NCBI GenBank assembly: GCA_002432195.1
Contig: DJGG01000132.1
Coordinates: forward strand, 34,407 to 98,406
Direction of reading: 5' to 3'
From: Desulfobacteraceae bacterium UBA5852
Lineage (GTDB): Bacteria > Desulfobacterota > Desulfobacteria > Desulfobacterales > UBA5852
Length of the DNA stretch: 64,000 nt
Notes under the pieces: model-generated
Databases searched by the model: none
Told to the model about the DNA's origin: nothing
The model's input: the letters and a program-made list of their open reading frames with translations, nothing else
Part shown: piece after piece, positions 1,019 through 47,039 of the stretch
Layout of the letters: each line of letters starts with the position of its first letter
Position numbering within the stretch: the first letter of the stretch is position 1
Translations under genes and position numbers: made by a program

Positions 1019-1702
1019 ATGGAAAATAGTGTTGCTATTTCATTGGTTTCGGTGGCTGTTGGGTGGTTCCTGGCACAAGGAACTGATATTTTAAAGATTT
1101 TTTGGAATTCTCGTAAATACCGCAAAGGATTGCTTCTTGAGCTCCAAGATATTCATGACCAACTTAGGCGCGTAATCATGATTCACAGTCGCCAAATTCA
1201 AATTTTCTCCATAGATGGGTTGGAACCGACAGCAGCACTTCCCGTAGAAAACATGTTTTATAGACAGCACTTTAAAGATGCGTTTTCAAATCTCAATGCA
1301 CATCAACGTATATCTTACCAGCTTATTCATGCATCTTTAGAGAACTTAAATAAGCAGAACGAGGAACTGGCTAATTTTAGTAGAGAAGCATACAAGGAAT
1401 TATGCTTTTCGACCGACGAAAACAAAAAGAATTCAATCATAAAGCTATGGGGTGATCGTGTAATAACTTTGTACAAATCTGCTCGTGAAATTCAATGGCT
1501 TATAGGCTTTCATCTTTGCAATTCTAATTCTCCCGTTTATGATATTATGGGAGAAATGCATAAAAGTTATCTGAAGTTTGATGATAAACTTAACGATGAA
1601 ATCAGGAACATTTCCCAATCAGCAAAGGGCCTTAAAAAAGAGGACTTTAAAAGAATATACGACGAATATGCCTTCGATCACCAATCAGGGAATAACGATT
1701 AG
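1019..1702 (+). CDS. Hypothetical N-terminally anchored membrane protein (AT-rich cargo)
   Basis: 227-aa ORF with an N-terminal helix VAISLVSVAVGWFLAQG followed by a long helical soluble part. AT-rich. No motif recognised. Confidence 0.55.
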   Translation: MENSVAISLVSVAVGWFLAQGTDILKIFWNSRKYRKGLLLELQDIHDQLRRVIMIHSRQIQIFSIDGLEPTAALPVENMFYRQHFKDAFSNLNAHQRISYQLIHASLENLNKQNEELANFSREAYKELCFSTDENKKNSIIKLWGDRVITLYKSAREIQWLIGFHLCNSNSPVYDIMGEMHKSYLKFDDKLNDEIRNISQSAKGLKKEDFKRIYDEYAFDHQSGNND

Positions 1703-9600: not shown

Positions 9601-12600
9601 TCCTTGTAGGCGCCCTCCACCCACTCCCAGAACTGTTCCTGCATGGCGATGGACTGCACCCCCACCCGCCCGGAAATCTGCACGATGCCGCCGTCGGGGT
9701 TCAGCCGGATCCCCTTCATCCCGGGAACCTGCCACTCGCCGCTGGGCAGCTGGATCCCGTGTTGCCGCACCCACTCGGCGGCCGCCAGGTCGCCGTAGCG
9801 GTTGAGCATATCCGGCAGCTCCTTTTGGGAGACAGGGCTGTCGGCGTTCGCGCTGGTGTTGGCCGAAAGGCTTTTCAGCTTGCGGGAGAGCACCGCCGCC
9901 GGCCGGATCTCGGTGGGAAGGTCCAGGAACAGGAGCCGGTATGAGGGAAGCGCGGTCTGCCCCTTCCGGTTAATGCGGCCCATCTTCTGCACTTCGGTGT
10001 CCACGTTGAGCTCAGCCTGCACCCCGATGTAGACTCGGGGCCGCTGGTCGGTGAACTTCGGGGAAGCGTGCATGCTGATCCCGGTGGAGCCCGCCGAATT
10101 GATGATCACCACGTCGAGCGCGCCGGAATTGAACCGGTGGATGATGCCCTTCCGGTCGCTGCGCTCCTTCCCGGTTCGCAGCCGCAGGGTGGGCACCGGG
10201 TTTTCGATGTCGGCCACGTAGCCCCGGCCAGTGATTTCCTCCGACGAGTAGCCGGCCTCCTTCAGCTTTCGCCGGATGTGGTCGATGGGGCTGCCCGGAA
10301 CGTCGAGTCTTGAGTTCCGAATCATTTCCAGGGCCGTGTCGAAGGCCTCTTCGAGCTTCTCCCCCAACTCCGCGGGGTCCAGGTCAACCTGAATCTCCTC
10401 CCCCTGGGGCGTGGTGATGCTTACCCGCAGGGTGCGCCGCAGGGCGCGCTCCAGGATGTTGCCGAAGTTCAGGTCGAAGCGGTCCCCCACCCTCATCATC
10501 CCCTGGTTCACCAGATCGGTGACGAAGGACTCCATGGTGTTGGCCACGGCGATGATGGGCTTGCGGCCGGCCTTCAACTCCTCGATGGCCGCCTCCACCG
10601 CGGCGTCGGCCTTCATGGCGAGCAGCAGCTGCCGGATCTTGTTATGAACGGTGCTGGCGAAGTTGGCCGTGTTGACCGATGCCCGCACCGGCCGCTTGGA
10701 GCCCGGCCGAATCCCGATGGGGTCAAACTCCACCCCGCCGATAACGACCTTTTTGGCCTTCCGGAGGTCCTTGGGCTTGGCGTTCTTGATGGTCCGGATC
10801 GCGTCTGCAAGGGAGTCGGCCACCAGGCGGTCCACTTCAAGGATCTCGCGCAGGATGGCGGTCGCCTCGTCGGCCCGGCGGGCGTCCCGCTCCCGGTTCG
10901 CGGTGTCGAAGTGGCTCCGAATCTCGATGCCCTTGAAGCTCTTCTCCCGCCGGATGTACTGCCCCATCTTGGCCAAGGCCGCGCTCACCCACTCCTGTAG
11001 CGGGGTCCCGCCGGCGCTGATGGCGTCGATCAGCTGCTCCATCTGCATGTTGCTCGTGCCGATGGCGGTGCGGAAGTAGACCGGCATGGTGTCGGGGCGC
11101 TTGGCGAAGGTGGCCGAGAGGTAGGCCACCCCGCGCACTTCGGCCAGGGCGCCGCGGACGAACTCCCCCGTGGCCGATTCCCCCGAAGCGTTGTGGGACT
11201 CGTCCAGGATCATGATGTTGTCCCGGGCGAGCAGGATCAGCACGGTCTGGGCGTCGTTGGGCTGCCGCACCTGGGAGTAAGTGGAGAGGATCCCGTCATG
11301 GGGGCTCATGGCCCGGGCGACGGCCGCGTCGTCGCCGGCCTTGAGCAGCCCGGCGCGCTCCCGGAGGCCCGGGGTGGGGATGACCACCTCGCCGTCCTCG
11401 TCCACGATGTTGGCCAGGTCGCGGTTGGAGGCCATGAGGAAGGGCTTGAAGACCTTCTGCCCGATGTCGCGGATGTCCCGGTAGAAGTCCGAAAAGAGGT
11501 TCGGCTTTTCCGTGAAGAAGATGGGCTTGAGCCCCTGCAGGCGGGCGTAGCGGTAGAGGCTCGCGGCCACCCGGCCCTTGCCTACCCCGGTCTGGTCCCC
11601 GATGATCATGCCGTAGCCGCGCTCGATGTTGTCGATGGCGAGTGCCACGGCGTCCACCTGGTCGGCCGACAGAGCGTCCCAAAGCGCCTTGGTGCTCTTG
11701 TAGTCGAGGCGGCTGGCGACGTACCGATCGATGTCCCCCACCCGTGCCTCCAGGGCTTCCAGGGCTGCCTGGGTGTCCTGGGCCATCTTGCGTGGCACCA
11801 GTGTTTCGTCCACCACCGGGCCCTTGCTGCGCGGAACGTAGGGGGCCTGGTAGGCGTCGGCCCCCCCGGGGACCTCGTCCTTGCGCTCCTGCTGCTGCTT
11901 CTCGGCCTCGAGGGCGGCGGCGATGTCGGCCTGGGCGAACTTCAGAAGGTAGGGCTCGGCGGCGGCCTTCAGTTTGGCGTAGGTCTGGGTGATGAAGAGG
12001 CTCGCCCGCTCGGCCACGGTGGCGGCGAGCTTGGCGGTGGCCTCCCACATTTGCCGCAGGATCTCGCGGACCTTCAACCAGCGGGGGTCGTCGTCGGCAA
12101 TGGCCTCTGCGGGCCGGCGGGAAAAATTGGGGTCGTCCAGAAGATCGTTGAGGTTGTTGGCCAGCCGGTCGAAATCGGCCTGGGCCTTTGCGGCGTCGGC
12201 GGCGGCCTTCTCCGCGGCCTCCTTCTCGCGCTGCCGGGCGCCCTCGCGGCGGATCTGATCGAGGATGCCGCCTAAAGCATCCGGCCCTCGCTCTCCAGCA
12301 GGAACTCCTCCAGGCTCACGGCCTCCATTTCCTTTTTCATCTGCTCGGGTGTCGGCGCTTCGAGGTCCGGCTCCCTCGCCTGCAGGTTGTCCAGGACGTT
12401 CTCCAGCGTCGTCTCCCCGCGGAGGTAGTGTGTCAGGGCCTGGCCCGGGTGCATCCACCGGGCGCTGGTCTGAAGCTCTGCCAGCAGCTCCTCGGGCGTC
12501 TCCCCTTCCACCGGCCTGTCCAGGAACTGCTCCACCACCGCGCGGGCCCTGGGCACCCCCAGGTCCTCGATCATCCGGCGCACCCTGGTTCGGAGGGCCA

Positions 12601-15600
12601 TCGGGTAGGTTGCCCCGGTCGGCGGTTTCTCCCCCACCCACACCGCCAGCAGGCGCCTCGCCGCGGGATAGGGCTTCAACTCCTCGGGAAGCCACGGTTG
12701 CATCGGCCAGCCCTCCAAAGAGGTTCAACAGTTCATCGGGGGTCGAAGCCGACAGGAAACCGCTGTCCGGTGCTGCGCCCCCGGGTTCGGCCTTGCGGCC
12801 GTCAATCACGATGATGCGGAAATCGTACTTGGTCCCCTGGCGGCTGTAAAGCTGGCCGTCCACCTCCACGTTGTGGGTGACGTTGTAGAAGTGGTGGAGC
12901 CAGTTGAAGAACGGGGCGTGCCTGATCTGCCCGTTGCTGCCCAGGTTGTGGCCGCCAATGATGAAGGCCGCGCGTCCATCGTCCTTCATGGCTCGCAGGG
13001 CGTCGGCCATAATCCGGTGGTCGATCTGGGAGACATTGTATCCATCGACCTTTACGGTGGGAATGGCGCCGAAAGGCGGGTTGGCCACCACGGCGTCGGC
13101 GTCCCGCTCGTTGGGGTCGTGGCGGCCGGCGTTTAAGGTGGCGCCGTCCTCCTGGGAGGCAGTGAAACCCATGGCCCGCAGGATCTCGGAGCGCAGGAGG
13201 TTGATCTCGTTCGCGTGGGCCTTGTGCTGGGAGGCCGCCGTGAGCAGCATCCCGGTGCCCGCGGCGGGCTCGTACACCGTCGCGTCTCGGGTGACGCCCG
13301 CCAGCTCCTGGAGCAGGTAGCCGAGGTGGACGGGCGTGGAATAGGCCTGGTTGATGGTGCTGGTGGAGGTCCGGGTGGCGAGGTTCGGCTGCCACTCGTA
13401 GAGCCGCTGGAGCTCCGCGAAGGTTTCGGCCACGGTGAACCCCTCGGCCCGGGCGGCGTCGATCACGCGCCGGGCCTCAGCGGCAATGGCCCCCTCGAAG
13501 ACCTCCTCCACGAATTTCTGGTTGTACCGGGAATCGGCCAGCAGGGGGCCCCGCTCGACTCCCAGGGCGCGCGCCACCACCTGCTGCAGGCCCACTTTGT
13601 TGAGCCGCTCGCCCCGGCTGCGCACCACGTCGCCGAAGAGCTTCAGCAGCGCCCGAATCCGCTGTTTCGGACTCAGGCCGAAGAAGGCGGCGGGATCCCC
13701 CAGTCCGCCCTTGATCTCCACCGGCGCGGGGGCTGGCAGGTGCCGCGGCTTCTTGGGCTCGGCGGCCGCCCGGTCGATCACGTCTTGCTCCCAGGAAGCG
13801 CCGGTTTTCAACTGGTACTGCCCCGTCACTGAGTCGATGTGGACGAGCTTGGTCTCCTTGAAGCGCGCCAGCACCCGCTCGGCTTCCTCCCGGGTCTTTC
13901 CGAACTGTTCCATCACGCTTTCGATGAAACGTTCCTCCCCGGCGAGCATGCGTTGGGCCACCGCTTTGGTTCCAGGGATCTTCTCCGGAGTGGCCTCGGG
14001 TTTCCGCTCCCCGCCGGCAAACAGGTCCGGCTGCCGGGGGTTCTGGAACCCCAGGCCGGGCTGGGCCTCGTCGCGGCTGCTGGGCGTCGAAAAGTAATCG
14101 TCGGGGCCCAGCTTCCCACCTCTGTGGCCGGACTTGATGGGCCTCGAATCGTGTAGGGGCTTCGGCCGCTGCTGGCCGTGAGTTTCCTGCTTCAGGTCGA
14201 GAGTGGGCTTGCCGGGCTCGGGGGCGGCCGCCGGCTCTGGCGCTTCGGGCGCTTCCGGCGCGGGGGCTTCCGCGTTGGTTTCTGCCGGGGCCTCCCCGGG
14301 CCCATTTTCCATCTTGGGTTTGGTTTCCCCCTCAAGGTCGGATTTCAGCACGTCCACCCGGTCGAAGGGGGCGAGCTCAACAGTGGTCCCGTCCTGAAGG
14401 GTGACGCCGAAGGGGTCCTTGTCGATGATCTTGTAGATGTCCCAACCATCCGGCCCGTGGCCGGCGATGATGGTCAGGGGGCGGCCCTCGGGGAGGTCTT
14501 CGGCATTGACCTGGACGTACTCGCCCGGGGGAGGATCCTCGGGCTCGTATTCCATTTGCGATAGGAGTTGCTTCTCCTTGTGGGTTAGGTCGTCGCCACT
14601 ACGCGCAGTAATGTCGGTGTTCCGGCGCTTCAGGACCTCCTTGGCCCGTTCGTGATCGCCAATCAGAAGGTCAAGCAGATTTTCACCTTCGAGGAGATAA
14701 CCTTCTGATTTTAAGGCTGTTTCAATCTTATCGTATGGGGTGCCGTTTTTCCGAAGCAGCATCTTGACTGCCACGGCCGCCTCCTTGAACTCGGCGGCCA
14801 TGTTCACGGGGTTGATTCCGCCCATCTTCTTGATCCAGCCACGGACGGTGATGGGGGCCTGCTTCGCTCGCTGACGCTTCGGCTTGGGGATCTTCTCAGG
14901 TGTCGAATCAGTGCTGGGCGTCGGGGCGCCCGATTGCGCTTCAGGCTCGGCACCGGTGCGGGCCTCGGCTTCCTCCTTGGCTCGTTGCTCGGCGCCCTTC
15001 TTCCGGATCTCGTCCAGGATCGATTCCAGTCCGTCCGGGGCCTGGGGAACAGCCAGCGCTTCCGGCGCCGGCGCGGGAACCCCCTTCTTGGCCCGCAGCT
15101 CGGCCAAGCGCTTGTGAGCGTCCCCCAGCTTGGAAACGGCGAAGGTGTCGCCCGTAACAGGGTCGGTGAACAGGTACTGCGCGGCCGGGTCCACCCCGTT
15201 GAACTCGATCCCCAAGCCGGCGGCCACCTTCCGGGCCGTCTCCCCGTTGCTGTTGGCCTTGGCCAGGGCGTCGGCCTTCTTGGCGGCCTCAAGCGCCGCG
15301 GCCTCCTTGTCCGTGAAGGCCATCCCGCCGACCGTCGCCGCCGACTTGACGGCCTTTACCGGAACCGAGGGATCGAGCGGGGTCCTCTTGCGGGTGCCGT
15401 CCCCCAGCCAGGCCTTCAGCTGCGCTGGCTCCATTTCGGTCATGCCGCCGAAGCCGTTCCACCCCTCCTCATAGTTGCGCTGGTAGATCTCCCGGGCCTG
15501 TTGGGCGTTGGCGGCCCCCAGGATGACCTTGTGCTCGTCAAACTCCCCGGTGTTGGGATCCATCTGGTCGATGACGAAGGCCTTCGGAGTGTTGACCGCC

Positions 15601-21624: not shown

Positions 21625-23967
21625 TTAGCGGGCGTTGGCGTACTTCAGGGGTTGTTCGGCAATGGCGAGATAGATGAAACGATTTCCGGCCGTCTGTGCC
21701 CAACGGATTTTGAACCCGTTGGAAACGAAGTCTATGAAGTAGGTTCCGGAAGCTTCAGCCGCCGAATCATCTGCCATGAGAGTACGAGTTGTCGGGTTTT
21801 CGGAATTGCGCTTGCTGTCGACCATGTACCAACGCCCCGTGGCACTGGCCGCCTTGTAGAGGAGAAATGCGGGTCGAAAACCGCAGTAGTTGAAAGGCCC
21901 GTCGGCGTTGGCGATGCTATCCCAGTAGCCGACTTTAACGAGGTTGGGGGTTGACCTAAATAGGTAGGACATAAACACATCTCCTGCAGCCCCACGTGCG
22001 TTTGTAAACACTGAGGCGGTAGGTGGCGTGTTGTTCCACCCGGCGGTAGCAATCTTCGCATCGTTCGTGTTGAGTTTGAGGTGGTAGTCCCAGGGCAAGG
22101 CGGCCGCGATAAATTCGCATCCGACAAACCAATCTTGGGTTCCACCAGCAATCCGCTTGAGGATGATTAACTCCGGGGCCGCACCGAGGTTATGGTTTAC
22201 GGTTTCCACCCCTGCGGTGGCCCTGGTGAATTTGATGGCCTGCGCCCCATGCTGCGGTAGCATGGAAAATAGCCAGTCGATGTAGGTCGAGCCATTAACG
22301 CCCAACTCTAGGCCAGCTCCGTTAACGATGGAGACGCCATCCGGATTGAATGAAGTGACACCCTCGCTCGGATACCCCGTACCGTCTTCATTGACACTCG
22401 TGGTCATCAGGTAGCGGCCCACACCACGCTCTGCGTCAAAGATGAAAGGGTGACCTGCCAGGTCCCGGCGCTTCAGCCACGCCATCCGTGGGGCCATCAG
22501 TAGGTTGGAATGGGAGAAGGAGCCCCCGTTACCGGTTCTGGGAATCGCGATGAATGCCCTTTCGCAATCCTGTATGGCAGGCTCAGGCATTAGGGAGGTA
22601 CATAGAGGCTGGGCGTCGGAAACCGGGTAGCTGAACGCCACCGACCCATTGTTGATGGTCAAGTTGTCCCGCTTGCTGTCCGCGACCATACCAAAGGCGA
22701 ACCAATAAGGTACGCCGGTCGGGAGTGTGGCGGCCACCCCTTGAGATACCCCGTTCTTGAAGAATTCAAGCTGTCCGGTGTCCGCGTCGAATACCACGCC
22801 GATGATGTTGTTCTGCCCCCAGGTGGCCCCGTAGGTCTCACTGGTGCCGTTGTTGAAGAACGTACCTAAGCGGCTATAGTAGGCCCACGCCCCGGCAGTG
22901 GTGAGCGAAGACAGGCAGCGGTGGCTATCGTTAATCACTCCAACGAGGTCGTAAGGCGGCGTATAGAGATCGAGGAGGGGCTTGATTTCGATTTGCCATT
23001 TCCCGGTGGTGGGGATGGGCAAGTCTAACGCTCTGGTGCCGTGGTCGGTGTTGGTGCCGGCAAACCTTGTTCCAGCATCGGCTACGGAGCTCGTTGCGGG
23101 GCGAAGAGAGTCAAGAATGGCGAATCGGTTGGTTGGCGTGTCCTTTGTCTGAACCGGAGAATTGCCCGGGGCGAAGTTCCCGATCCCGGCGCTGTCGTGA
23201 CCCAGGGTTCCGGCCTGATCGTACTTCAGATGAAATCCCCCTACCCCGTATGGCCCGGCGTAGCTCTTGGGAACCCATAGGTTGCCTTTGAATTCTCCGA
23301 ATGAGCTTGGCTCTATCGCCGCCCCGGTGACGAGGATAGTATCCGCAAGGTATCCGTCGAAATAGTGAGTGGAGGCGTCGAAGCTTCCGACATAAGGTAC
23401 TGAACCCGCGTAGGAAACCGTGCTCCCGTAACTCAGGCTCGGATAGGTGGGGGTTCCGTTGAGGGATTGCCGCACCCCGTTGATGTAGAAGCGCAGGCGA
23501 TCAGCCTGGGTGGCATTCGGAGAGTCGTAGATGACCTCCACGTCGTACCAACCAGAGTCCCGCAGCAGATGGACCGTATCAGCCAGGGCTGCCGTGGTGC
23601 CGCCGTTGTTGAAGTAGAGGCTTAGGCGGTCCTGATAAATGCGGATGTTCAGGTAAATGTTGCTTGCCAGATAGGCATTGAACAGGGTGTAGGAGGCAGT
23701 GCCGCTATCCGGTTTCCCGCGGCGCAGCATGGTGCGGAAAGTGAACTGGGTGTTACCGCTGGTGGACCCCCAGGCCGCTCGGTTTAGATATTGGTTAGTG
23801 TGCAGCCGGATGGAATAGGGAATCTCGTAGCGGTAGAGCTTACCACCACGGAAGGACAGGGATTTTCCCAGCAGGACGGGCTGAAAGGCCTGGGCTGCAG
23901 CTGCCGCCAGGATAGCGACGGTCAAGGCCAGAAGGACGATAGCATGCGGCTTGCGCATGGAGGCCAC
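21625..23967 (-). CDS. Tail fibre/receptor-binding candidate with LamG-like and SPRY-like jelly-roll regions and N-terminal signal-like peptide
   Basis: 780 aa. N-terminus MRKPHAIVLLALTVAILAAAAAQA. LamG-like stretch YDVEVIYDSPNATQADRLRFYINGVRQ. SPRY-like stretch GKWQIEIK...IIGVVFDADTGQLEFFKNGVSQGVA...PYWFAFG. Confidence 0.7.
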   Translation of the reverse strand: MASMRKPHAIVLLALTVAILAAAAAQAFQPVLLGKSLSFRGGKLYRYEIPYSIRLHTNQYLNRAAWGSTSGNTQFTFRTMLRRGKPDSGTASYTLFNAYLASNIYLNIRIYQDRLSLYFNNGGTTAALADTVHLLRDSGWYDVEVIYDSPNATQADRLRFYINGVRQSLNGTPTYPSLSYGSTVSYAGSVPYVGSFDASTHYFDGYLADTILVTGAAIEPSSFGEFKGNLWVPKSYAGPYGVGGFHLKYDQAGTLGHDSAGIGNFAPGNSPVQTKDTPTNRFAILDSLRPATSSVADAGTRFAGTNTDHGTRALDLPIPTTGKWQIEIKPLLDLYTPPYDLVGVINDSHRCLSSLTTAGAWAYYSRLGTFFNNGTSETYGATWGQNNIIGVVFDADTGQLEFFKNGVSQGVAATLPTGVPYWFAFGMVADSKRDNLTINNGSVAFSYPVSDAQPLCTSLMPEPAIQDCERAFIAIPRTGNGGSFSHSNLLMAPRMAWLKRRDLAGHPFIFDAERGVGRYLMTTSVNEDGTGYPSEGVTSFNPDGVSIVNGAGLELGVNGSTYIDWLFSMLPQHGAQAIKFTRATAGVETVNHNLGAAPELIILKRIAGGTQDWFVGCEFIAAALPWDYHLKLNTNDAKIATAGWNNTPPTASVFTNARGAAGDVFMSYLFRSTPNLVKVGYWDSIANADGPFNYCGFRPAFLLYKAASATGRWYMVDSKRNSENPTTRTLMADDSAAEASGTYFIDFVSNGFKIRWAQTAGNRFIYLAIAEQPLKYANAR

Positions 23968-23970
23968 TCC

Positions 23971-24954
23971 TTACCAGGCGGTGAAATTCGCCTTGCCGTT
24001 GAATGGGTACTGAACGAGAACGCCGAACAGCAGTGCGTCGCCGGCGGTGTAGGTGTCGGCGGTGCCGCCAACGTTTCGCGAAACCTGCAGATGCACCAGG
24101 GCCTCGTTGGTGGCGCTGGTGTAGGTGCCCGCGAAGGTCACCGCCGGGGTGGCGTCGGTGTAGTGCAGGACGGTATTCTCCCCGGCAAGCAGGGTGTCGG
24201 CCACCACCTGGGAAGTCCCCGGGGCAACGTCCACGGCGCCGTTATCCGAAATGGCCGCGCCAGCCACCTCCCACTCCACCCCGTCGGACGTGCTCCCGTT
24301 GTCGTTGAAGGGCCTCCAGAGGAACTTGAACTTGATCGCCCCCCCGACCCGGGAGTCGTAGCCGGCGAGCACCACGTTGGCGAAGGCGTACTCCTCCACC
24401 GTCCCGTCGAAGGCCAGGTAGTCGAACATGCCCTTGTTCGTGGTGGTCTCCACGCTTCCCGTGGCCGGCCCTGCTGTGGTCTGCGGGGTGAAGGCGCTGG
24501 CCGGGATGAACAGGGCGCGGTAAAGCTCGTCGCTGTATTTCTTCGCCGCCCGCTCAGTGATGAGCGCGGTTGGTGAGGCGCCAGCCAGGGTTTCATCGTC
24601 GGAAATATCGTTGACCTCGGCGCCGGTCTTCAGCTTCAGGGAATCGAATTGGATCTTCACCAGCAACCACCGGCCATTGCCCCCGTTCACGTCGGGAGCG
24701 ATGACGTACGGCACCGCCTCGACGCCGCCAATCGTGGAATTGTAGATGTAGAGGTAGGACCTCCCCTCAGCGAGAACCGAAACCCAACAGCGGTCCCCGT
24801 CGCTCAGGTTGGCCCCGTTGATGGCGTCCATGGCCCCGGCGGCCCCGCCATAGATGGCGTTGGCCCCGTAAGTGCGCGTGGCGCGGGCCGGCGCCGGCAA
24901 AAGGAAGGCCGCCGCCAGCAGGATCAACAAGAGGGTTGCGGAGAGCTTTTTCAT
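23971..24954 (-). CDS. Tail-module protein with signal-like N-terminus
   Basis: Only the last 327 codons of the listed 944-aa ORF look real. ATG 24954 overlaps the upstream stop (ATGA). N-terminus MKKLSATLLLILLAAAFLLPAPARA. The upstream 617 codons are R/G/P shadow of the 910-aa gene. Confidence 0.65.
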   Translation of the reverse strand: MKKLSATLLLILLAAAFLLPAPARATRTYGANAIYGGAAGAMDAINGANLSDGDRCWVSVLAEGRSYLYIYNSTIGGVEAVPYVIAPDVNGGNGRWLLVKIQFDSLKLKTGAEVNDISDDETLAGASPTALITERAAKKYSDELYRALFIPASAFTPQTTAGPATGSVETTTNKGMFDYLAFDGTVEEYAFANVVLAGYDSRVGGAIKFKFLWRPFNDNGSTSDGVEWEVAGAAISDNGAVDVAPGTSQVVADTLLAGENTVLHYTDATPAVTFAGTYTSATNEALVHLQVSRNVGGTADTYTAGDALLFGVLVQYPFNGKANFTAW

Positions 24955-39825: not shown

Positions 39826-39875
39826 TCCTTTCCGGAAAAGGAAAGCGGGGCCGGGGCATGTGCCCAAGCCCCGCT
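39826..39875 (-). terminator. Hairpin plus T-rich tract upstream of the late operon (antitermination target candidate)
   Basis: On the minus strand AGCGGGGC-TTGGGCACATGCCCCG-GCCCCGCT (39875 to 39844), with inner GGGCA/TGCCC pairing, followed by TTCCTTTTCC. Located just 5' of the first late ORF. Confidence 0.4.
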
Positions 39876-40043
39876 TAACCAGGGAGCGGTTTGCCGTCAG
39901 AGAGCCGTGGCGGTGGCGGAAGCAGTTGGCAAACCATGACGAGTTGATGGCAAGCCAACAGTTGAATTTGGCCTTGTCAAGCACATTTTTTGATCTAAAT
40001 CACCAAGGCCTTTTGGCACTTAACACAAGGCAGGAGAAACATC

Positions 40044-40072
40044 TTGACAGCAGATGGCCGGAATGAGAGATT
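40044..40072 (+). promoter_or_regulatory. Candidate promoter of the R-M island
   Basis: TTGACA (40044-40049), 17-nt spacer, GAGATT (40067-40072, weak -10), about 65 nt upstream of the RHH gene. Confidence 0.3.
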
Positions 40073-40138: not shown

Positions 40139-40315
40139 ATGGGCAAGCGTCGTATTACCATCAGCTTGGACCCCGAAGCCTACAGCGCCCTCTCCACCGT
40201 GGCCGAGGTAACCGACCGTTCCCTGAGCTGGCTTGCCTCCCAGGCAATCAAGGAATTCCTTGAGCGGCAGGACGCGCTCAAGCAGAAGCCGATTGAATTT
40301 AGCTGGCGGCAATAG
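40139..40315 (+). CDS. Ribbon-helix-helix (CopG-like) regulator
   Basis: 58-aa ORF below the track cutoff: MGKRRITISLDPEAYSALSTVAEVTDRSLSWLASQAIKEFLERQ. This is the classic RHH beta-strand plus two-helix pattern. The listed antisense ORFs here are rejected. Confidence 0.65.
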   Translation: MGKRRITISLDPEAYSALSTVAEVTDRSLSWLASQAIKEFLERQDALKQKPIEFSWRQ

Positions 40316-40528
40316 ATATTCGGCGACCCGACCCACCTCAAACGACAAAATCGACAAATCGAGTCAAGAGTTCGGTGATAGGCCATGATGCGTGCTATGG
40401 ACTGGACGTTGTCCAATCCAAGTGAATTTCGGCCTTTACATGCGGAACACGATTTCTCATTCGCTGACCAAAGAGGTAGGAAACCATACCCGTATACAAT
40501 TCAATCGATGACATCCCGGGATCCAGCA

Positions 40529-40969
40529 ATGGTGGATGTGTACTCCTCGGAAAAACGAAGCCAAGTCATGAGCCGCGTCATTGGGCGAGATACCAAGCCT
40601 GAGAAGCGTGTACGATCAGCCCTCCATCGGGCCGGATACAGATTTAGACTGCACAGGGGGGATTTGCCGGGGAAACCTGATATTGTGCTCGCCCGATATT
40701 GCACGGTCATTTTCGTCAACGGATGTTTCTGGCATCAACATCCCGGTTGCTCAAAGGCGACAATTCCGCAAAACAATAGACAGTTTTGGGAAAGAAAACT
40801 GAGTCGCACAGTGGAAAGGGATGAGCAAAACAGATCGGACTTGAGGCGTCTGGGATGGAACGTAATGACTATCTGGGAATGCGAAATGCGTAAGTCATTC
40901 GATATGACCATAAAACGTGTCGTGGAAAATTTAATATATATTGATCAAAAGAGCGTCAAAAGAGGATAA
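40529..40969 (+). CDS. vsr: Very-short-patch repair endonuclease
   Basis: SRVIGRDTKPEKRVRSALHRAGYRFRLHRGDLPGKPDIVLARYCTVIFVNGCFWHQH...NRQFWERKL...GWNVMTIWECE matches Vsr end to end. The start is uncertain (ATG 40529 chosen; the ORF is open from 40385). Confidence 0.85.
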   Translation: MVDVYSSEKRSQVMSRVIGRDTKPEKRVRSALHRAGYRFRLHRGDLPGKPDIVLARYCTVIFVNGCFWHQHPGCSKATIPQNNRQFWERKLSRTVERDEQNRSDLRRLGWNVMTIWECEMRKSFDMTIKRVVENLIYIDQKSVKRG

Positions 40970-40971
40970 GT

Positions 40972-42300
40972 GTGATTATAGAATCTCAGATCTATGAGCC
41001 TCTGCTTAAAGCCTCCACGAACGGCAAGCTCTCTAATGAAAATTTCAGAGCCATCACTAAGTTGCTTGAGGGAGAGGTTCAAAGTGAAGTTCGCAACTGG
41101 AGACCTGAAACCAATCCGGATATGCGGAAACCTAATCCCGCCTTTCAGGTTTTGGACTTTTTCTGTGGCTGCGGCGGCATGTCCTTGGGATTCTCCGCGC
41201 TTTCGAGGATTGTTCCGTTGATTGAGGTGATCGGCGGTTGCGATATAAACAGCGATGCCCTCTCGACTTTTGAACGGAATTTCGCAGTTCCGGGAATTAA
41301 GATGGATGTCAGAGATTTGGTGGATGACGACAACGCCTTATCGCGATTCCTTGAATTGATGCCCCGTTACAACAAGAACAGACGATCAATTATAATTGGC
41401 TGCGCACCCTGCCAAGGTTTCACCTCTCATCGCAAGCGGCACTGGCACAAGGAAGATCACAGGAACACTTTAATCGGCGCATTTGCATCTATAGCAGTCA
41501 GATTAAATCCAGAATGCATAGTGATGGAGAACGTCCCCGAGATGCTCTCCAAGAAGTATTGGAATCATTTTACAGACGCGAACGCCATCTTTAACGAAGC
41601 TGGTTACGTTGTATCCCAAGCAATCTATAATGTCGCCTCGTTTGGTGTTCCGCAGGATCGGTACAGGGCTTTGGTCATTGCGATGAAAAAGCCTTTTATT
41701 TTGCCGCATCCGAGGATCGAAGACCCTGCCGAGTTCAATACCGTACGCGATGCAATCGGCGCCCTACCCCCGGTCTTACCTGGGCAAGCGCACCCGCAGG
41801 ATTCAATGCACAGGTCGGCCGGCCATAGAGAGTCAACGTTAGCGACAATTCGCGCTGTGCCAAAAAACGGGGGAAGCCGTCCAACCGGCGTCGGGCCGAA
41901 ATGTTTAGACCGTGTTCGTGGATTTTATGATGTGTATGGACGGTTAGGATGGGATCGCCCGGCGATTACAGTCACTCACTATGCGCGAAATCCCGCATCA
42001 GGCAGGTATGTGCATCCGGAACAGGACCGTGGTCTGACGATGAGAGAAGCTTCGCTCCTTCAAAGTTTTCCTGTGGGATTTGAATTCAGAGGCACATTTG
42101 ATTCCATCTTCAAGCAGATCGGCGAGGCCGTCCCGCCTTTGTTTGCGGCAGCCGTTGCGGCGCATTGCGTGATAGAACTGCTTTCGAAAAGCCCTGATTC
42201 TGCTGAGAAGGCACGAGCGGTCCCTCCGATTACTGAGCCTGTGAGCAGTTCCTTCTCCAGCGTGATCGCTGGAATAAAAATGGCGAGAAATAACAGATGA
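40972..42300 (+). CDS. DNA (cytosine-5) methyltransferase A
   Basis: 442 aa. Motif I DFFCGCGGMSLGF, motif IV GCAPCQGFT, motif VI MENVPEM, motif VIII QDRYRALV, motif X IGEAVPPLFA. GTG start 3 nt after the vsr stop, with AGAGGA upstream. Confidence 0.9.
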   Translation: MIIESQIYEPLLKASTNGKLSNENFRAITKLLEGEVQSEVRNWRPETNPDMRKPNPAFQVLDFFCGCGGMSLGFSALSRIVPLIEVIGGCDINSDALSTFERNFAVPGIKMDVRDLVDDDNALSRFLELMPRYNKNRRSIIIGCAPCQGFTSHRKRHWHKEDHRNTLIGAFASIAVRLNPECIVMENVPEMLSKKYWNHFTDANAIFNEAGYVVSQAIYNVASFGVPQDRYRALVIAMKKPFILPHPRIEDPAEFNTVRDAIGALPPVLPGQAHPQDSMHRSAGHRESTLATIRAVPKNGGSRPTGVGPKCLDRVRGFYDVYGRLGWDRPAITVTHYARNPASGRYVHPEQDRGLTMREASLLQSFPVGFEFRGTFDSIFKQIGEAVPPLFAAAVAAHCVIELLSKSPDSAEKARAVPPITEPVSSSFSSVIAGIKMARNNR

Positions 42301-43367
42301 AATTGACTTGCGTGGATGGTTTTTCGGGCGCAGGAGGACTGAGCCTGGGGCTTGCACGAGCCGGGTTCGATATTGTCCTTTCCTTTGATAATGACCCATT
42401 ATGCATTGAAACACAACGGCTCAATCCAAAATACTTTGGACATCAAGTGTTGTGTTCAGGGATTGAGGAAATGTTGGGCGGTCAGCTTTTGAGAATCGCA
42501 AGGCTACAACCGGGTGAGCTCGACCTCCTTGCGGGAGGCCCCCCATGCCAAGGATTTTCCGTACAACGGATCGGCCCGGATGAAGACAACAGGAACAATC
42601 TGGTTCTAAAGTATGTGCAACTTGTTGAAGAGGTCCGGCCCAAATACTTTTTGATGGAGAATGTAAAGGGCCTCGCGGGAAAGCGAGGTGGAGAATACCT
42701 CTTTCGCGTTATGCGACGAGCAGAAAAATGCGGGTATCACGTCCATTTCAGGGTTTTGGATGCTCAAGACTTTGCGGTGCCGCAGCGCAGGCAGCGCGTT
42801 ATGGTTGTTGGAGAGCGTTTGATAAACGGCGGATCTCCCAAGTTCGTCTTCCCCAAAGCTATGACCCCTCAAGGGAAGCGGGTTACAGTCCGAATGGCTA
42901 TTGGTAAACTTCCAGTACCGCCACAGAGTGGTGCCGAACATCCGGATTACACCCACCATAGAAGGGATCGCCTCTCAGACCTCAACAAGAAAAGACTGGC
43001 GGCGCTGAAGGCAGGCCAGGGGCGCGAACACCTTCCCCCCGAATTGCTGGCTGAATGCCATCACGTAAGCCCAGAAATCATCGGCCACCGTAATGTATAT
43101 GGGCGAATGCGCTGGGATGACGTCGCTCCAACAATTACCGCAAGATTCGACAGTTTTACCCGAGGCCTGTTTGGGCACCCGTCCCAGCTTCGCTCTATTT
43201 CCTTGCGTGAGGGGGCTGAATTGCAAACATTTCCCTCAGACATGGTCTTCGCTGGAAACAAGGTGGATATTGCCCGGCAGATTGGAAATGCCGTTCCGGT
43301 CCGTCTCGCGGAGGCAATCGGAAAGTCTATAGCGGCTTGCCTCGATGATAGAGGGGAAAGGAGCTAA
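42297..43367 (+). CDS. DNA (cytosine-5) methyltransferase B
   Basis: 356 aa. Motif I DGFSGAGGLSLGL, motif IV GGPPCQGFS, motif VI MENVKGL, motif VIII QRRQRVMVVG, motif X IGNAVPVRLA. ATGA overlap with methyltransferase A. Confidence 0.9.
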   Translation: MKLTCVDGFSGAGGLSLGLARAGFDIVLSFDNDPLCIETQRLNPKYFGHQVLCSGIEEMLGGQLLRIARLQPGELDLLAGGPPCQGFSVQRIGPDEDNRNNLVLKYVQLVEEVRPKYFLMENVKGLAGKRGGEYLFRVMRRAEKCGYHVHFRVLDAQDFAVPQRRQRVMVVGERLINGGSPKFVFPKAMTPQGKRVTVRMAIGKLPVPPQSGAEHPDYTHHRRDRLSDLNKKRLAALKAGQGREHLPPELLAECHHVSPEIIGHRNVYGRMRWDDVAPTITARFDSFTRGLFGHPSQLRSISLREGAELQTFPSDMVFAGNKVDIARQIGNAVPVRLAEAIGKSIAACLDDRGERS

Positions 43368-46300
43368 ATGAGTTTTGAAAGTTTGGTCCGCGATTACTTG
43401 ACATCAATGCATGAATATATTGATGCGGCGGCCGCTACCAGAGAAGTGACGCCCGAACTTTCCTACCGCCCTGTTCTTGACACGTTTCTGCGCAAAATAT
43501 CACGGCTCTATTGTCCCGATGCGGACATCATTTTCGAACCCAAGCTGCAAGGCCATGCCGGGCGACCCGATTGGCGAATATACAACAATGCCGATTTTGG
43601 CCTGTATGGATTCGTGGAGGCCAAAGGGCTTGACCCTCGGAATCCGATTAATATAGAGCCGCATAGAGAGCAGATATCTAGGTATCTTGGAACTGGCCAG
43701 CGGGTAATTCTGACGGACGGAATAGAGTTCATTTTCTTCGAACCTGGGCGAATTGATACTGCACAGCGTCACTGCATAGTCCCAAAACCAATTCGACATC
43801 GTTTATCCAGAACAATTCCAATAGATTTTCTAATAGACAACCTTCTTAGAGATTTTTTTCGCGAGACCGGCTTTCGGCAATGCTCAGAGGAGCAATTAAT
43901 TAGAGAAATTGCGAAACGAGCTTCCGCGCTCGCGGAATGTGTTCTTATCCTCTCACAGGCCCCACCTGATTCGGGGGTATCGGAGGATGAGAACCGGACT
44001 ATTCGCATCCTGCATGATTTGCATGGAGCGTTGCGTTTGCAGCATGACCCTGTCCTCCGGCAGCCCAAAATTTTCGCCGATTTTGTGGCGCAGGTTCTAT
44101 GTTTTGGTTTGTTGTACGCCCACCGTGTCGTTGCAGGAGAAGCCGGGGAACCACCATCACGCTATGAGGCAATACGTCGGTTTTGGACAGACGCGGTTTT
44201 CGCCAGTTACGCTGATCGCCTTGTACCGTTTAAAGCGTTGGTCGGGATGCTTGAATCTGAGTTATCGCCCGAAGGGGAATCCGCAAGCCAACTCCGATGC
44301 TGGTATGACGATGCTCGTAGGTTGCTGGCTCATATTCAGTTGCGTTTAGCTCAGCGTAGCGCCCCCGACTATCATACGCTTTACGAACAATTTCTTGCCG
44401 AGTTTGATCCAAAGACAAGGTTTGATTTTGGGGCTTTCTACACGCCACCCGAGTTGGCAGGCTTTACCGTGGGGGCAGCAAAATCGGTAGCTGAGTCAAC
44501 CTTCGGAGGACGATGTCTTTTTGAGGAAGGAAATAAAATTATCGACCCATGTTGCGGAACGGGCACATTTTTGGAGCAGTTGGTCCGGCATTCGTCAGGC
44601 GGAAATGCGGCGCACTTGGTTGGTTTCGAGATTCTGCCCGCCCCATACGCATTAGCCCACTATAGGATTGCAATGCTCCGAATTGAGAGCGTACCGGAGC
44701 ATGATATCGATATATTTCTGACAAATTCCTTGAGTGACGAATTGATCGATGGCGATGACGATCATCCTGCAAGCGTTCTAAGGGAGGAGTTGCGCCGTGC
44801 TAAAAATTGCGCTCAGCCGCCGATCGTACTCGTTATTGGGAATCCTCCGTCGTCCGATAGTTTCGGTCCGCACAGCACAGGCGAGAACTTCACCGTGATC
44901 GAGCGGTTGCTTGAGGATTTTCGGCCGCCGGAGGGAGAGCGCCGTTCAAGACAAAACATACAGAAGCAGATTGGCAATGATTTCATGAAATTTCTGCGTT
45001 GGGCGGCCGACAAGGTACTTGAGAGTGATATGGGCATTTTGGCGCTTATACTCCCATCCACCTTTGCAGCTCACCCCACTTATCGCTACGCTCGAGAGTG
45101 GTTGATAGGGCACTTCTCGCATTTTTGGGCGATGGATATAGACCGGGATCTGCGGACAGGTGTCCGTTCCTCAAGCCTTTTTAACTCTCGGCAGGGGCGC
45201 ATGCTTCTAATCGCTACACACACGGGGTCGGTTCCCGACACGCTCGCCGAACGACTTCATTACATTGCCATAACCGACAAGACTCGCACACAGAAGAAAT
45301 CTTTCCTGGATGAATCACGGTCCTCCGGCGACTATATTGCTCTATTCTCACAGTACGATCTAAATCGGGAAACAAAAGCTTTTCGGTTTGGAGAGCAGAG
45401 CTATGACAGGGATCTGTATTCTCGGTTCTGGGCGATTCACTCGACAGGTCCCGGAGTCCCTGCAGAAGGCGAGCGATGCATATTCGAACGACATTGCTCC
45501 GGGATAAAACTTGCTCCGGTTGCGCTATTCGTGCATCCAAGCAGACCGCTCCTTCAACGAAGGAGCCAGGAGGTCGGCAATCTCGCCACGCCATATGCCA
45601 ATCTGATAGAGCGCTGGTTTTCCGGCCAAAAGAAACCGCCCGGGGAAAACAAACTAACCCAAGAGGTGAGACAACGTTTAGGGGCCGCATCTATTGCCGA
45701 GACCTCCTATCGGAAGTATTCTTTTCGACCTTTTGTTCCAATGCATCTTCTTTTTGAAGACTCACTCCTGCGCGTTCTTAGCGGGCTTGGAGGCGGAGGT
45801 ACTCGCCTCCGGCCGGAAGTGGTTTCCGCATATTCGAGCCTCGGGACGGTAGGCATTGCCATCGCGCCATCTCCTATCGACATAGGTGATGACATTCACC
45901 GCTTTGCGACGTTCTGCTGGGACATGCCAGACAATGATCTTTGCGCTAGAGGCAATGCGCATGTGTTCTGTAATCAGTTCCCCGAAAACAAGCCTCCAGG
46001 TGGAAGAGCATGGGATCCGACTCCGAAAACAAATATCTCTGAGTGCCTGCTCGCGGCGGTGAGGGCAGTTCGTCCCGAAACCACGGCTCGTGACATTGTT
46101 TTTTATAGCTATGCAGTTCTTTGCTCAGGAACACTTCTGGAAGCATTTGCTGAGGCCTACTACACGGCTTCCGATAGGGAGAATATTCCGAGGATTCCAA
46201 TTGTTAGTGATCCGGATATTATTGCGGCGCTGATAGGTAAGGGGCAGAGAATAGCTGAGTTGGAAAACCCTGAAACAGAGGTTCAACTACAGGCTTGGGC

Positions 46301-46643
46301 AGTTCGGCTTGAAAGTGCGTATTCTAGAGAATTCAAGCTGGTCAAGTTCTCTGTAGACGATGAGAGGCACGAGATCCGGCTTTTCTCGGATATACAACGT
46401 GAACCTGAAATCACACTCGAGGGAATTCCTGAAGAACTTTTGCAAATTACCATATCGGGGTATGAAGTCATAAATTGTTGGCTTAAATTTCATACCTACG
46501 CCTATACAAGGACTGCTTTCACGAGTGCGGAATTTTGCGAATTGTTGAGGCTCCTGTCCGTTCTGATGTCACAAATTGACGTAATTAGCGATGTCGATGC
46601 CGTGATTGAAAAAGTAATCTCAAGAGAGGTGGAGCTCTTATAA
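43368..46643 (+). CDS. Type IIG/ISP-lineage fusion: PD-ExK nuclease, gamma-class N6-methylase-like domain (motif IV = NPPS) and C-terminal specificity region
   Basis: 1,091 aa. N-terminal IIFEPK...GRPDWRIY...GFVEAKGL (PD...ExK). AFYTPPELAGF, motif I IIDPCCGTGTFL, motif IV VIGNPPSSD (44841-44852). C-region YRKYSFRPFVP resembles the YRPF motif of type ISP specificity domains. ATG abuts the upstream TAA. Confidence 0.8.
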   Translation: MSFESLVRDYLTSMHEYIDAAAATREVTPELSYRPVLDTFLRKISRLYCPDADIIFEPKLQGHAGRPDWRIYNNADFGLYGFVEAKGLDPRNPINIEPHREQISRYLGTGQRVILTDGIEFIFFEPGRIDTAQRHCIVPKPIRHRLSRTIPIDFLIDNLLRDFFRETGFRQCSEEQLIREIAKRASALAECVLILSQAPPDSGVSEDENRTIRILHDLHGALRLQHDPVLRQPKIFADFVAQVLCFGLLYAHRVVAGEAGEPPSRYEAIRRFWTDAVFASYADRLVPFKALVGMLESELSPEGESASQLRCWYDDARRLLAHIQLRLAQRSAPDYHTLYEQFLAEFDPKTRFDFGAFYTPPELAGFTVGAAKSVAESTFGGRCLFEEGNKIIDPCCGTGTFLEQLVRHSSGGNAAHLVGFEILPAPYALAHYRIAMLRIESVPEHDIDIFLTNSLSDELIDGDDDHPASVLREELRRAKNCAQPPIVLVIGNPPSSDSFGPHSTGENFTVIERLLEDFRPPEGERRSRQNIQKQIGNDFMKFLRWAADKVLESDMGILALILPSTFAAHPTYRYAREWLIGHFSHFWAMDIDRDLRTGVRSSSLFNSRQGRMLLIATHTGSVPDTLAERLHYIAITDKTRTQKKSFLDESRSSGDYIALFSQYDLNRETKAFRFGEQSYDRDLYSRFWAIHSTGPGVPAEGERCIFERHCSGIKLAPVALFVHPSRPLLQRRSQEVGNLATPYANLIERWFSGQKKPPGENKLTQEVRQRLGAASIAETSYRKYSFRPFVPMHLLFEDSLLRVLSGLGGGGTRLRPEVVSAYSSLGTVGIAIAPSPIDIGDDIHRFATFCWDMPDNDLCARGNAHVFCNQFPENKPPGGRAWDPTPKTNISECLLAAVRAVRPETTARDIVFYSYAVLCSGTLLEAFAEAYYTASDRENIPRIPIVSDPDIIAALIGKGQRIAELENPETEVQLQAWAVRLESAYSREFKLVKFSVDDERHEIRLFSDIQREPEITLEGIPEELLQITISGYEVINCWLKFHTYAYTRTAFTSAEFCELLRLLSVLMSQIDVISDVDAVIEKVISREVELL

Positions 46644-46644
46644 G

Positions 46645-46765
46645 GGGCCAAGGGGGACCTTCAAAAACTCAATAACTATTTGCATCCTGTTCTGACGCAA
46701 CCTTGACCGGTCCTTTTTGCCACGCAACCTCAAGGAATCCCCATGGCCTTCACGAAATCAAGCCT
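46645..46765 (+). repeat. Copy B of the duplicated leader (functional IHF/HU gene leader and first codons)
   Basis: Partner of 1728-1850. Same order of conserved blocks, ending in the RBS CTCAAGGA and ATG 46743, which here opens the intact 98-aa IHF/HU gene. Confidence 0.6.
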
Positions 46766-47039
46766 CATCGAAGCTGTAATGGCCCCAACCGGGCTCACCA
46801 AGAAGAGGTCCACTGAGATAGTTGAAACCCTCCTGGAGCTGATGAAGCGCTCCCTGGAAGCCGGGGATGTCATCCTGGTCAGCGGCTTCGGAAGGTTCAG
46901 CGTGCGGGCCAAGCATGAGCGCCGCGGCCGCAACCCGGCAACCGGCCAGGACTTGATGCTGCCGCCCCGGAAGGTGGTCTCCTTCAAGTGTTCGGGCAAG
47001 CTCCGGATGCTCCTCAACGGAAGGCAATCGGCGCAATGA
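46743..47039 (+). CDS. IHF/HU-family DNA-bending protein
   Basis: 98 aa. LVSGFGRFSVRAKHERRGRNPATGQDLMLPPRKVVSFKCSGKL is the canonical HU/IHF beta-arm signature. Confidence 0.9.
   Translation: MAFTKSSLIEAVMAPTGLTKKRSTEIVETLLELMKRSLEAGDVILVSGFGRFSVRAKHERRGRNPATGQDLMLPPRKVVSFKCSGKLRMLLNGRQSAQ

Follow-up and report, generated by a model that had tools for sequence, protein, structure and literature searches.

Restriction enzymes that join a nuclease, a gamma-class amino-methyltransferase (MTase) domain and a target recognition domain (TRD) in one polypeptide have been described in several forms, and we compared with these a predicted restriction-modification (R-M) cassette from a temperate phage or prophage region of Desulfobacteraceae bacterium UBA5852. 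The cassette lies in a 64,000-nucleotide stretch of contig DJGG01000132.1 (assembly GCA_002432195.1, positions 34,407 to 98,406), which we call the window and whose numbering is used for all coordinates. It encodes a very-short-patch repair endonuclease (Vsr), two C5-cytosine DNA MTases (M1 and M2) and a large protein of 1,091 amino acids (aa) that we abbreviate as RM*. Among the described enzymes, those of the Type IIL group, represented by MmeI (5HR4) and DrdV, are single chains of ~1,000-1,100 aa with the same domain order as RM*. MmeI-family enzymes are solitary, protect host DNA by methylating one adenine on one strand and have diversifying TRDs. A box formed by the Phe or Tyr of MTase motif IV, His314 and Trp570 around the flipped adenine is absolutely conserved, and 341 MmeI-family enzymes all have the motif IV aromatic, which stacks on the target adenine (PMC4833311).

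A second described pattern combines a Type IIG enzyme with separate MTases. The organisation R~gammaM~TRD & M1 & M2 is recorded for BpuSI, BsmFI and BspLU11III and that with a fused M1~M2 for BseRI (PMC3874165 Table 4), and Eco57I is a further monomeric Type IIG enzyme with separate MTase coverage of both strands (PMC3874165). Of the two BpuSI partners, M1 produces N6-methyladenine and M2 5-methylcytosine (m5C) (PMC3817140). BpuSI itself has an active NPPY motif, methylates adenine and carries a TRD resembling a Type I S subunit. Type ISP enzymes such as LlaGI and LlaBIII also have NPPY, but they place a superfamily 2 (SF2) helicase-like ATPase between nuclease and MTase, cleave after translocation and collision, and are longer than RM* at ~1,570 aa (the LlaGI and LlaBIII chains in the PDB have 1,406-1,578 aa). 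Type IIS systems such as HgaI and BbvI use two strand-specific m5C MTases for an asymmetric site; unlike RM*, the nucleases of these systems are classical Type IIS enzymes of small size that lack an MTase-like domain.

An earlier note on this DNA, made from the letters and a list of open reading frames (ORFs), had proposed that RM* fuses a PD-(D/E)xK nuclease, a gamma-MTase-like core and an ISP-like TRD, and hidden Markov model (HMM) searches, structure prediction and Foldseek comparison all bore this out. The domains follow in the order PD-(D/E)xK nuclease (residues ~1-140), helical connector (~150-335, ~185 residues), gamma-MTase-like domain predicted to bind S-adenosylmethionine (SAM; ~336-660), Type_ISP_C-type TRD (~706-1042) and C-terminal helix. 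Pfam profiles matched PF02384 (N6_Mtase) at 338-500 and PF18135 (Type_ISP_C) at 706-1042 (E=7.5e-20, 71.7 bits against a cut-off of 25.9), and the PADLOC model REase_MTase_IIG matched with E=1.6e-43. The motifs GRPDW (at residue 65), VEAK and YRKYSFRPF (at residue 781), singled out in that note, are present and conserved family-wide. A phmmer search of the PDB returned DrdV (7LO5/7LVV; E=2e-18) as well as the Type ISP enzymes LlaBIII and LlaGI. We also built an AlphaFold2 model from a 28-sequence family alignment (mean pLDDT 84.5), for which DrdV was the top Foldseek match over the full length (E=4e-32, TM score 0.51-0.55, ~1,160 aligned columns), followed by LlaBIII (E=2.6e-27) and LlaGI and then by BrxX/PglX (E ~1e-10), BpuSI and MmeI (E=3e-8). 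DrdV is the best PDB match in both sequence and structure, yet only ~16% identical.

These comparisons place RM* between the described groups. The presence of nuclease, gamma-MTase and TRD in one polypeptide is the architecture of a Type IIG enzyme, the overall fold and domain order are those of MmeI and DrdV, and the gamma-MTase coupled to a PF18135 specificity domain is the unit shared with LlaGI and LlaBIII. NCBI names many members of the family "type ISP restriction/modification enzyme". Despite these names, we rejected RM* as a true Type ISP enzyme because no helicase motor lies between its nuclease and MTase domains; Pfam searches of RM* gave no helicase or ATPase match, and the SF2 motor of Type ISP enzymes is missing. 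RM* does not belong to the BpuSI family either, as BpuSI was absent from the phmmer PDB matches, gave Foldseek TM scores of 0.26-0.31 and differs in its TRD. Type IIG enzymes of the Thermus family (TaqII/TspGWI-like) are ~25% identical to the N-terminal ~640 residues of RM* and similar in length; unlike RM*, they are encoded by solitary genes, retain GNPPY and have no C5-MTase neighbours. One of them, the Thermus aquaticus p61 gene (L082), is probably TaqII, judging from the 1,105-aa size of that enzyme. In its organisation the cassette follows the BpuSI/BseRI pattern, while in fold and lineage RM* is closest to Type IIL enzymes with a Type ISP TRD.

To define the family, we searched exhaustively with HMMER over 1.84 billion cluster representatives (clusters at 50% identity). 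Full-length representatives fell into 74 at >=326 bits, which form the ingroup, and, after a sharp score gap, 19 outgroup representatives at <=153 bits. Genomic context was analysed in 75 loci from contigs representing one genome per species and in four IMG/VR viral contigs, whose ORFs were searched with the window proteins. Loci were testable if they belonged to the ingroup and had a full-length RM* gene with at least 2.6 kb of upstream sequence (n=62). Each of these 62 loci has orthologs of both M1 and M2 (E 1e-110 to 1e-224) immediately ahead of the large gene, arranged as M1-M2-RM*, with separate genes in 57 and a fused M1~M2 in 5. The hosts of this triad span Planctomycetota, Patescibacteria (candidate phyla radiation, CPR), Bacteroidota, Bacillota, Actinomycetota, Pseudomonadota and Chloroflexota. 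It is also carried by three of the four IMG/VR viral contigs. Among cultured bacteria, carriers include Sellimonas intestinalis BR72, Paenibacillus mellifer, P. lutrae, Shewanella chilikensis JC5, Lacibacter luteus, Hyunsoonleella aestuarii, Rubneribacter badeniensis and Mycolicibacterium sp. GF69. The closest relative in an assigned genome comes from a Phycisphaeraceae genome bin (L002, 67% identity). The fused forms (L015, L032, L041, L052 and L076) are double C5-MTases of ~790-860 aa that parallel the M1~M2 protein of BseRI.

Loci outside the testable set indicate how the triad breaks down. In a Nitrosopumilaceae genome bin, which is archaeal (L065), the large gene is split into two ORFs with M1 and M2 intact, and the IMG/VR locus L077 likewise has a large gene split into two ORFs beside intact M1 and M2. 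Only C-terminal RM* fragments remain in Butyricicoccus pullicaecorum (L063) and in L073, and M1 and M2 are gone from both. The nuclease thus appears to decay first and the MTases later, as seen in L065 and L077, a sequence of events that would be expected if the nuclease is toxic.

The nuclease domain is conserved across the clade. Residues P67, D68, W69, E84 and K86 do not vary among 28 diverse members, and the motif takes the form xPDW...(D/E)xK in all 74 ingroup representatives. The triad in 62 of 62 loci and the invariance of D68, E84 and K86 strongly support the proposal that these genes constitute a single R-M system with RM* as the nuclease, and we consider it very likely that M1, M2 and RM* form one conserved three-gene system in which RM* does the cutting. 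Were RM* no restriction nuclease at all, it could be a non-cleaving, DNA-binding or methylation-sensing part of another defense or epigenetic system, similar to PglX of BREX, or a decayed pseudo-enzyme; the Foldseek matches to BrxX/PglX and a change in MTase motif IV, described below, which shows that at least one ancestral activity has been altered, are in line with such a role. We find this very improbable given that the PD-(D/E)xK residues are invariant clade-wide, that more than 70 clusters show strong purifying selection along the entire protein, that the neighborhood contains no further conserved BREX, DISARM or helicase genes and that a toxic nuclease would need just such an obligate link to two protective MTases. 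A divergent subclade (L040, L050, L066, L072 and representatives P0138-P0181) has the nuclease motif xRPDW...GDHK rather than GRPDW...VEAK and often NPPS(T/S)I at motif IV, with M1 and M2 present wherever context is available. This subclade may have a different specificity or cleavage geometry.

The most informative feature of RM*, which the earlier note had overlooked, is the clade-wide replacement of NPPY by NPPS in motif IV. In alignments with PDB sequences, GNPPSSDS of RM* (residues 491-498) aligns with GNPPY of DrdV and LlaBIII. None of the 120 closest homologs has the motif IV aromatic, their motifs reading GN(P/L)PSSD or similar, and all ingroup genome and viral loci have (G/S)(N/S)PP(S/C). 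In the exhaustive search, all 74 ingroup representatives carry S, C, A or V at the aromatic position, whereas all 19 outgroup representatives have GNPPY. The form (N/D/S)PP(Y/F/W) that marks motif IV of Type IIG enzymes is accordingly found neither in RM* nor in any ingroup representative, and the aromatic of the Type IIL adenine box is absent clade-wide. NPPY is kept in five of five outgroup loci, none of which has a C5-MTase neighbour; they comprise L075 and four plasmid genes annotated as solitary (from P. aeruginosa, T. aquaticus, Sphingomonas and Oceanithermus). In tblastn searches of plasmids with RM*, the only matches were to outgroups (22-27% identity), and we took these matches as comparators. 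The clade differs in two further respects from the MmeI family. It has two obligate C5-MTases, which lie immediately upstream in 62 of 62 loci where a Type IIL gene would be solitary, and its TRDs look frozen rather than diversifying.

The perfect coincidence of the lost motif IV aromatic with obligate C5 partners removes the scenario, raised in the earlier note as the alternative to its proposal, of two independent systems that are merely adjacent. This scenario would place an m5C module of Vsr, M1 and M2, either orphan or Type IIP-style, beside a self-contained Type IIG/ISP-like enzyme. It draws on the facts that enzymes of the RM* lineage are usually solitary and that Vsr and C5-MTase pairs without a nuclease exist elsewhere, for example Dcm-Vsr. 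However, M1 and M2 immediately upstream in every testable locus, in conserved order, occasionally fused and in many phyla, effectively refute it. The only relatives lacking M1 and M2 are the truncated remnants L063 and L073 and the NPPY outgroups. We regard two adjacent systems as extremely unlikely. The same comparisons qualify the view that pairing an enzyme of this lineage with cytosine MTases departs from the textbook arrangement, which holds for the MmeI/Type IIL and ISP lineages but not for monomeric Type IIG enzymes as a whole, since BpuSI, BseRI and Eco57I are accompanied by MTases for both strands. In BpuSI systems one of the two partners is an m5C enzyme; in RM* systems both partners are m5C enzymes by sequence.

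While the motif IV aromatic has been lost, the predicted SAM-binding elements have not. SAM-binding motifs X, I and II are conserved (DPCCGTG, E421 and A[F/Y]YTP), as are G491, N492 and P494. In BpuSI, mutating the Asn of NPPY abolishes both SAM binding and cleavage (PMC3817140), which provides a reason to keep N-P-P without methyl transfer. We infer from these sequence patterns that RM* has lost protective adenine methylation. Alternatively, RM* could have kept both activities of a Type IIG enzyme in full and methylate adenine even with NPPS, the Ser or Cys being tolerated or compensated and M1 and M2 adding protection of both strands as in BpuSI, Eco57I and BseRI. Known Type IIG systems do pair an active enzyme with MTases for both strands (PMC3874165, PMC3817140), the clade has conserved N492, P493, P494 and F566 as well as motifs I and X, and the conserved S/C-(S/T)-D suggests a functional site. 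We nevertheless consider persistent adenine methylation unlikely, because the aromatic that is invariant throughout the 341 MmeI-family enzymes and present in all 19 nearest outgroup representatives occurs in none of the 74 ingroup representatives, its absence coinciding exactly with obligate C5 partners. In addition, were methylation by RM* protective, M1 or M2 should have been lost in some lineages, and none of the 62 loci shows such a loss.

The pattern of substitution also brings up a repurposed pocket, in which the gamma-MTase domain would flip cytosine rather than adenine, read its unmethylated or m5C state or catalyse a different reaction, with flipping licensing the nuclease. Substitutions are limited to small polar residues followed by a conserved (S/T)-D, unlike random decay, motif VIII differs systematically between the ingroup (LPxSF) and the outgroup (TN[N/H]SYL), and the SAM-binding motifs are retained. 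This explanation is, however, purely inferential, and it would be simpler if m5C, lying in the major groove, sterically hindered the TRD; we are not aware of any other gamma-MTase fold that serves as an m5C reader. We therefore hold a repurposed pocket to be quite unlikely. A pocket that reads cytosine would couple the absence of the m5C mark of M1 and M2 directly to nuclease activation, a coupling that we likewise find doubtful. If true, it would represent an amino-methyltransferase fold turned into an epigenetic reader inside a restriction enzyme and a natural separation of the sensing role of an MTase domain from its catalytic role.

Both partner proteins are C5-MTases with intact catalytic motifs. 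PF00145 matched M1 with 161.8 bits and M2 with 204.2 bits, and TIGR00675 matched them with 130 and 174 bits, respectively, against a cut-off of 100.65. M1 contains the complete set of motifs I (FCGCGG), IV (PCQ), VI (ENV), VIII (QDRYR), IX (TMRE) and X (GEAVP), and M2 also has the full set of C5-MTase catalytic motifs. The two are only 28% identical. The earlier view that they are separate enzymes, each protecting one strand of an asymmetric target, is in keeping with two catalytically intact MTases that are this divergent and sometimes fused, and by analogy with described Type IIS/IIG systems that have two MTases (PMC3874165) M1 would methylate one strand of the site and M2 the other. Across the family, the TRD segments of M1 and M2 are conserved as much as their catalytic cores, and conservation is good in the C-terminal specificity region of RM* too. 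Conserved TRDs in all three proteins are the pattern expected from one fixed recognition site and agree with the argument that separate partner MTases constrain specificity drift (PMC3874165, PMC4833311). PDB searches with M1 and M2 returned generic C5-MTases only (DNMT1, HaeIII and HhaI) and were silent on the site. We also rejected a DISARM or Druantia system, since the PADLOC matches to DrmMII and DruM reflect generic C5-MTases and no other genes of those systems are present.

These findings lead us to favor, with moderate confidence, a model in which RM* acts without protective adenine methylation and depends on a fixed asymmetric site and on two m5C MTases, each specific for one strand. 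RM* would descend from the Type IIG/IIL lineage (MmeI/DrdV-like), with a TRD shared with Type ISP enzymes. Its MTase-TRD unit would read the asymmetric site and license cleavage, with SAM bound as a cofactor or allosteric effector, and the single PD-(D/E)xK site would cut at a fixed distance, probably requiring a second RM* molecule as in other Type IIG/IIL enzymes. Protection would be delegated to M1 and M2, with one cytosine methylated per strand, and m5C in the major groove would block site recognition by the TRD. With the MTase genes in front and the stop and start codons overlapping or abutting, modification would come ahead of, or together with, nuclease expression, and Vsr would limit C-to-T mutation at methylated sites. 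In the lysogen, incoming unmethylated DNA would be restricted, and the cassette may also stabilize the prophage. As three proteins must agree on one site, specificity would be frozen across the clade, unlike that of MmeI-type enzymes.

Several points weigh against this model. The loss of adenine methylation is deduced from a single residue position, where substitution is mostly limited to Ser or Cys followed by a conserved (S/T)-D and does not resemble random decay, so that NPP(S/C)(S/T)D could mark a functional, altered active site rather than a dead one. The other two aromatics of the adenine box appear to be retained (F/Y in A[F/Y]YTP, and F566), and base flipping, possibly with weak methyl transfer, could persist in RM*. 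The assignment of one MTase to each strand of an asymmetric site draws on analogy, and k-mer depletion analysis of 0.93 Mb of carrier flanks (L002-L080) revealed no carrier-specific asymmetric word. Literature searches brought up nothing on an NPP(S/C) clade, on an inactive Type IIG MTase domain or on an MmeI-like enzyme with two m5C partners, although REBASE may list putative or even characterized members.

The k-mers depleted in the carrier flanks were generic palindromes (GGCC, CTAG, GATC, GGWCC, CAGCTG and others). GCAGC/GCTGC and CTCAG were mildly low, as explained by the palindromes GCWGC and CTNAG. GGWCC (GGACC/GGTCC) had an observed-to-expected ratio (O/E) of 0.62 (z=-11.9) in carrier flanks against an O/E of 0.84 in control phage loci, and GATC and ACGT were depleted in the carrier set only. 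The depletion of GGWCC, GATC and ACGT probably reflects other host R-M systems rather than the cassette.

As a phage-borne R-M system the cassette is ordinary; its interest lies in a large, coherent clade that seems to split the SAM-binding or sensing role of an MTase domain from its catalytic role. The clade comprises ~74 clusters at 50% identity and occurs in many phyla of bacteria, in one archaeal bin and in a few viruses. It appears to have given up self-protection by adenine methylation in favor of a three-protein R-M system, which would represent an evolutionary route between combined and separate architectures. It also offers a natural experiment on a question posed by BpuSI-type systems, the use of an MTase domain when partner MTases already protect both strands. 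With the SAM-binding scaffold retained and the adenine-stacking residue gone, the domain is predicted to serve regulation or recognition only, and specificity is predicted to be frozen, in contrast to the rapidly diversifying MmeI family. The clade probably represents an m5C-sensitive Type IIS/IIG cleavage specificity new to characterization, with possible practical use. Phage carriage is rare, with none among 50,697 GenBank phages, in which tblastn with RM* gave only two weak MTase-domain matches, and four IMG/VR contigs; this rarity makes the prophage a handy case of an R-M cargo gene set.

Vsr was identified by TIGR00632 (135 bits against a cut-off of 97.85), PF03852 (E=1.3e-28, 99.1 bits against 27) and the PADLOC Vsr model (E=2.4e-31). 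Its N-terminal ~48 residues (40385-40530) are not conserved in any homolog, identity in the N-terminal bin being 0.02, and the Vsr of a close relative has only 125 aa. The alignment suggests that the true start is probably internal, at the Met of residue 42 or 49, which would place the left edge of the imported island somewhere in 40316-40530. Vsr genes lie within 4.5 kb in 32 of the 62 testable loci, 5 upstream and 27 downstream, with widely differing levels of similarity, indicating that Vsr is an optional accessory of the cassette. Vsr would repair T:G mismatches arising from deamination of m5C. Its varying position and similarity between loci point to repeated recruitment and, through it, to real m5C activity in vivo. 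Linkage of Vsr to a C5-MTase, with Vsr countering deamination, is familiar from Dcm-Vsr.

The small gene upstream of vsr encodes an Arc-like ribbon-helix-helix (RHH) protein, for which a role as the dedicated controller of the system had been suggested. This suggestion did not hold up: an RHH homolog stood beside the system in none of the other 79 loci examined, the gene has phage-like composition (a GC content at third codon positions, GC3, of 0.76) and its product matches the phage family PHROG 3180, "Arc-like repressor", over its full length (E=1.9e-8). A 68%-identical relative that shares the order Vsr-M1-M2-RM* has no RHH gene upstream, and classical R-M controller (C) proteins are helix-turn-helix rather than RHH proteins. 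Sequence scans found no convincing promoter or operator signal for RHH control of the island. The RHH gene belongs to the phage backbone, sits immediately before the island and is no conserved part of the R-M system, although it may influence transcription into the island.

All five plus-strand ORFs listed in the earlier note were recovered at the same coordinates, together with the IHF-like gene that follows them (Table 1), and Pfam, NCBIfam and PADLOC searches confirmed the identities of RHH, Vsr, the two C5-MTases and the RM* fusion. The tight packing of the genes was also borne out. The TAA of vsr is followed by a 2-nt gap (GT) and the GTG of M1, M1 and M2 share an ATGA overlap, and the TAA of M2 directly abuts the RM* ATG.

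Table 1. Coordinates of the cassette, its key motifs and its neighboring genes in the window.
Feature	Position	Strand	Details
RHH, Arc-like ribbon-helix-helix protein	40139..40315	+	58 aa; Pfam RHH_1 E=2.8e-4
Vsr, very-short-patch repair endonuclease	40385..40969	+	194-aa ORF; TIGR00632, PF03852
M1, C5-cytosine DNA MTase	40972..42300	+	442 aa, GTG start; PF00145 E=3.6e-47
M2, second C5-cytosine DNA MTase	42297..43367	+	356 aa; PF00145 E=4.5e-60
RM*, large single-chain restriction enzyme (predicted)	43368..46643	+	1,091 aa; PF02384, PF18135, PADLOC REase_MTase_IIG
RM* nuclease-motif codons	43563..43625	+	residues 66-86, RPDW...VEAK
RM* non-canonical MTase motif IV codons	44838..44861	+	residues 491-498, G-N-P-P-S-S-D-S
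IHF/HU-family DNA-binding protein	46743..47039	+	98 aa; PF00216 E=7.6e-26

GC content is 0.45-0.55 within the island and 0.63-0.68 in its flanks. The genes of Vsr, M1, M2 and RM* have GC3 values of 0.49-0.53, against 0.73-0.89 in flanking phage genes such as those for IHF (0.80), SSB (0.82) and the large terminase subunit TerL (0.89). The drop that had been ascribed to five genes is thus real for these four and does not extend to the RHH gene. With RHH phage-like in GC3, the imported island consists of four genes at ~40385-46643. The best reading is that Vsr, M1, M2 and RM* were horizontally acquired as one R-M system and are cargo of a temperate phage or prophage. Acquisition is argued from composition and from the wide distribution of the cassette elsewhere, as no empty site or flanking repeats were found. 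An IMG/VR search for an empty site by TerL (47 loci) gave a closest TerL of ~44% identity and none with the RHH, IHF or R-M genes nearby, a scan for direct repeats bracketing the island found no convincing ones, and megablast of 36-51 kb against GenBank phages gave no match.

To the left of the island are the genes for the large and small terminase subunits on the minus strand, with TerL sharing 38-41% identity with terminases of phages, among them Burkholderia phage Bcep22 (~38%). To the right are genes for IHF, a VRR-NUC-like nuclease, SSB and further phage early genes. The IHF/HU product matches NF001401 (IHF alpha) with E=2.6e-28, under the model's own cut-off, and its gene is phage backbone, lying outside the R-M system and marking the right edge of the island. 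The island occupies the divergent region between the late and early modules, as do other phage cargo genes. In the metagenome contig of the 68%-identical relative (L085, 13527-14570), the cassette is preceded by a gene for an 863-aa AAA_13 ATPase and followed by a serine recombinase (resolvase) gene and a small RHH-like gene. This context hints that the cassette travels on small mobile or defense-island elements.

A scan for promoters and terminators called sites no more often than it did in shuffled sequence. At 40044-40049, ~90 nt upstream of the RHH start, TTGACA forms a perfect -35 hexamer, which has only a weak -10 element (GAGATT) at 17-nt spacing and was not called by the promoter scan; we do not claim a promoter there because of the weak -10. 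In the gap that separates the RHH gene from the beginning of the minus-strand terminase/late operon, a GC-rich, near-perfect hairpin at 39843-39876 is formed by two 16-nt arms (AAGCGGGGCCGGGGCA and TGCCCAAGCCCCGCTT) and a 2-nt loop (TG). It could be a terminator or a regulatory structure of the divergent control region.

Elsewhere in the window, the phage late/structural region contains a single ORF of 4,596 aa on the minus strand (3669-17459). Bcep22-like phages encode a giant virion protein of similar size. Positions 1-2000 form a second strongly low-GC patch (0.42 against ~0.66) with a 227-aa ORF (1019-1702, plus strand), which could be another foreign insert or the prophage edge, and a milder dip in GC content (0.58) occurs at 22001-24000.

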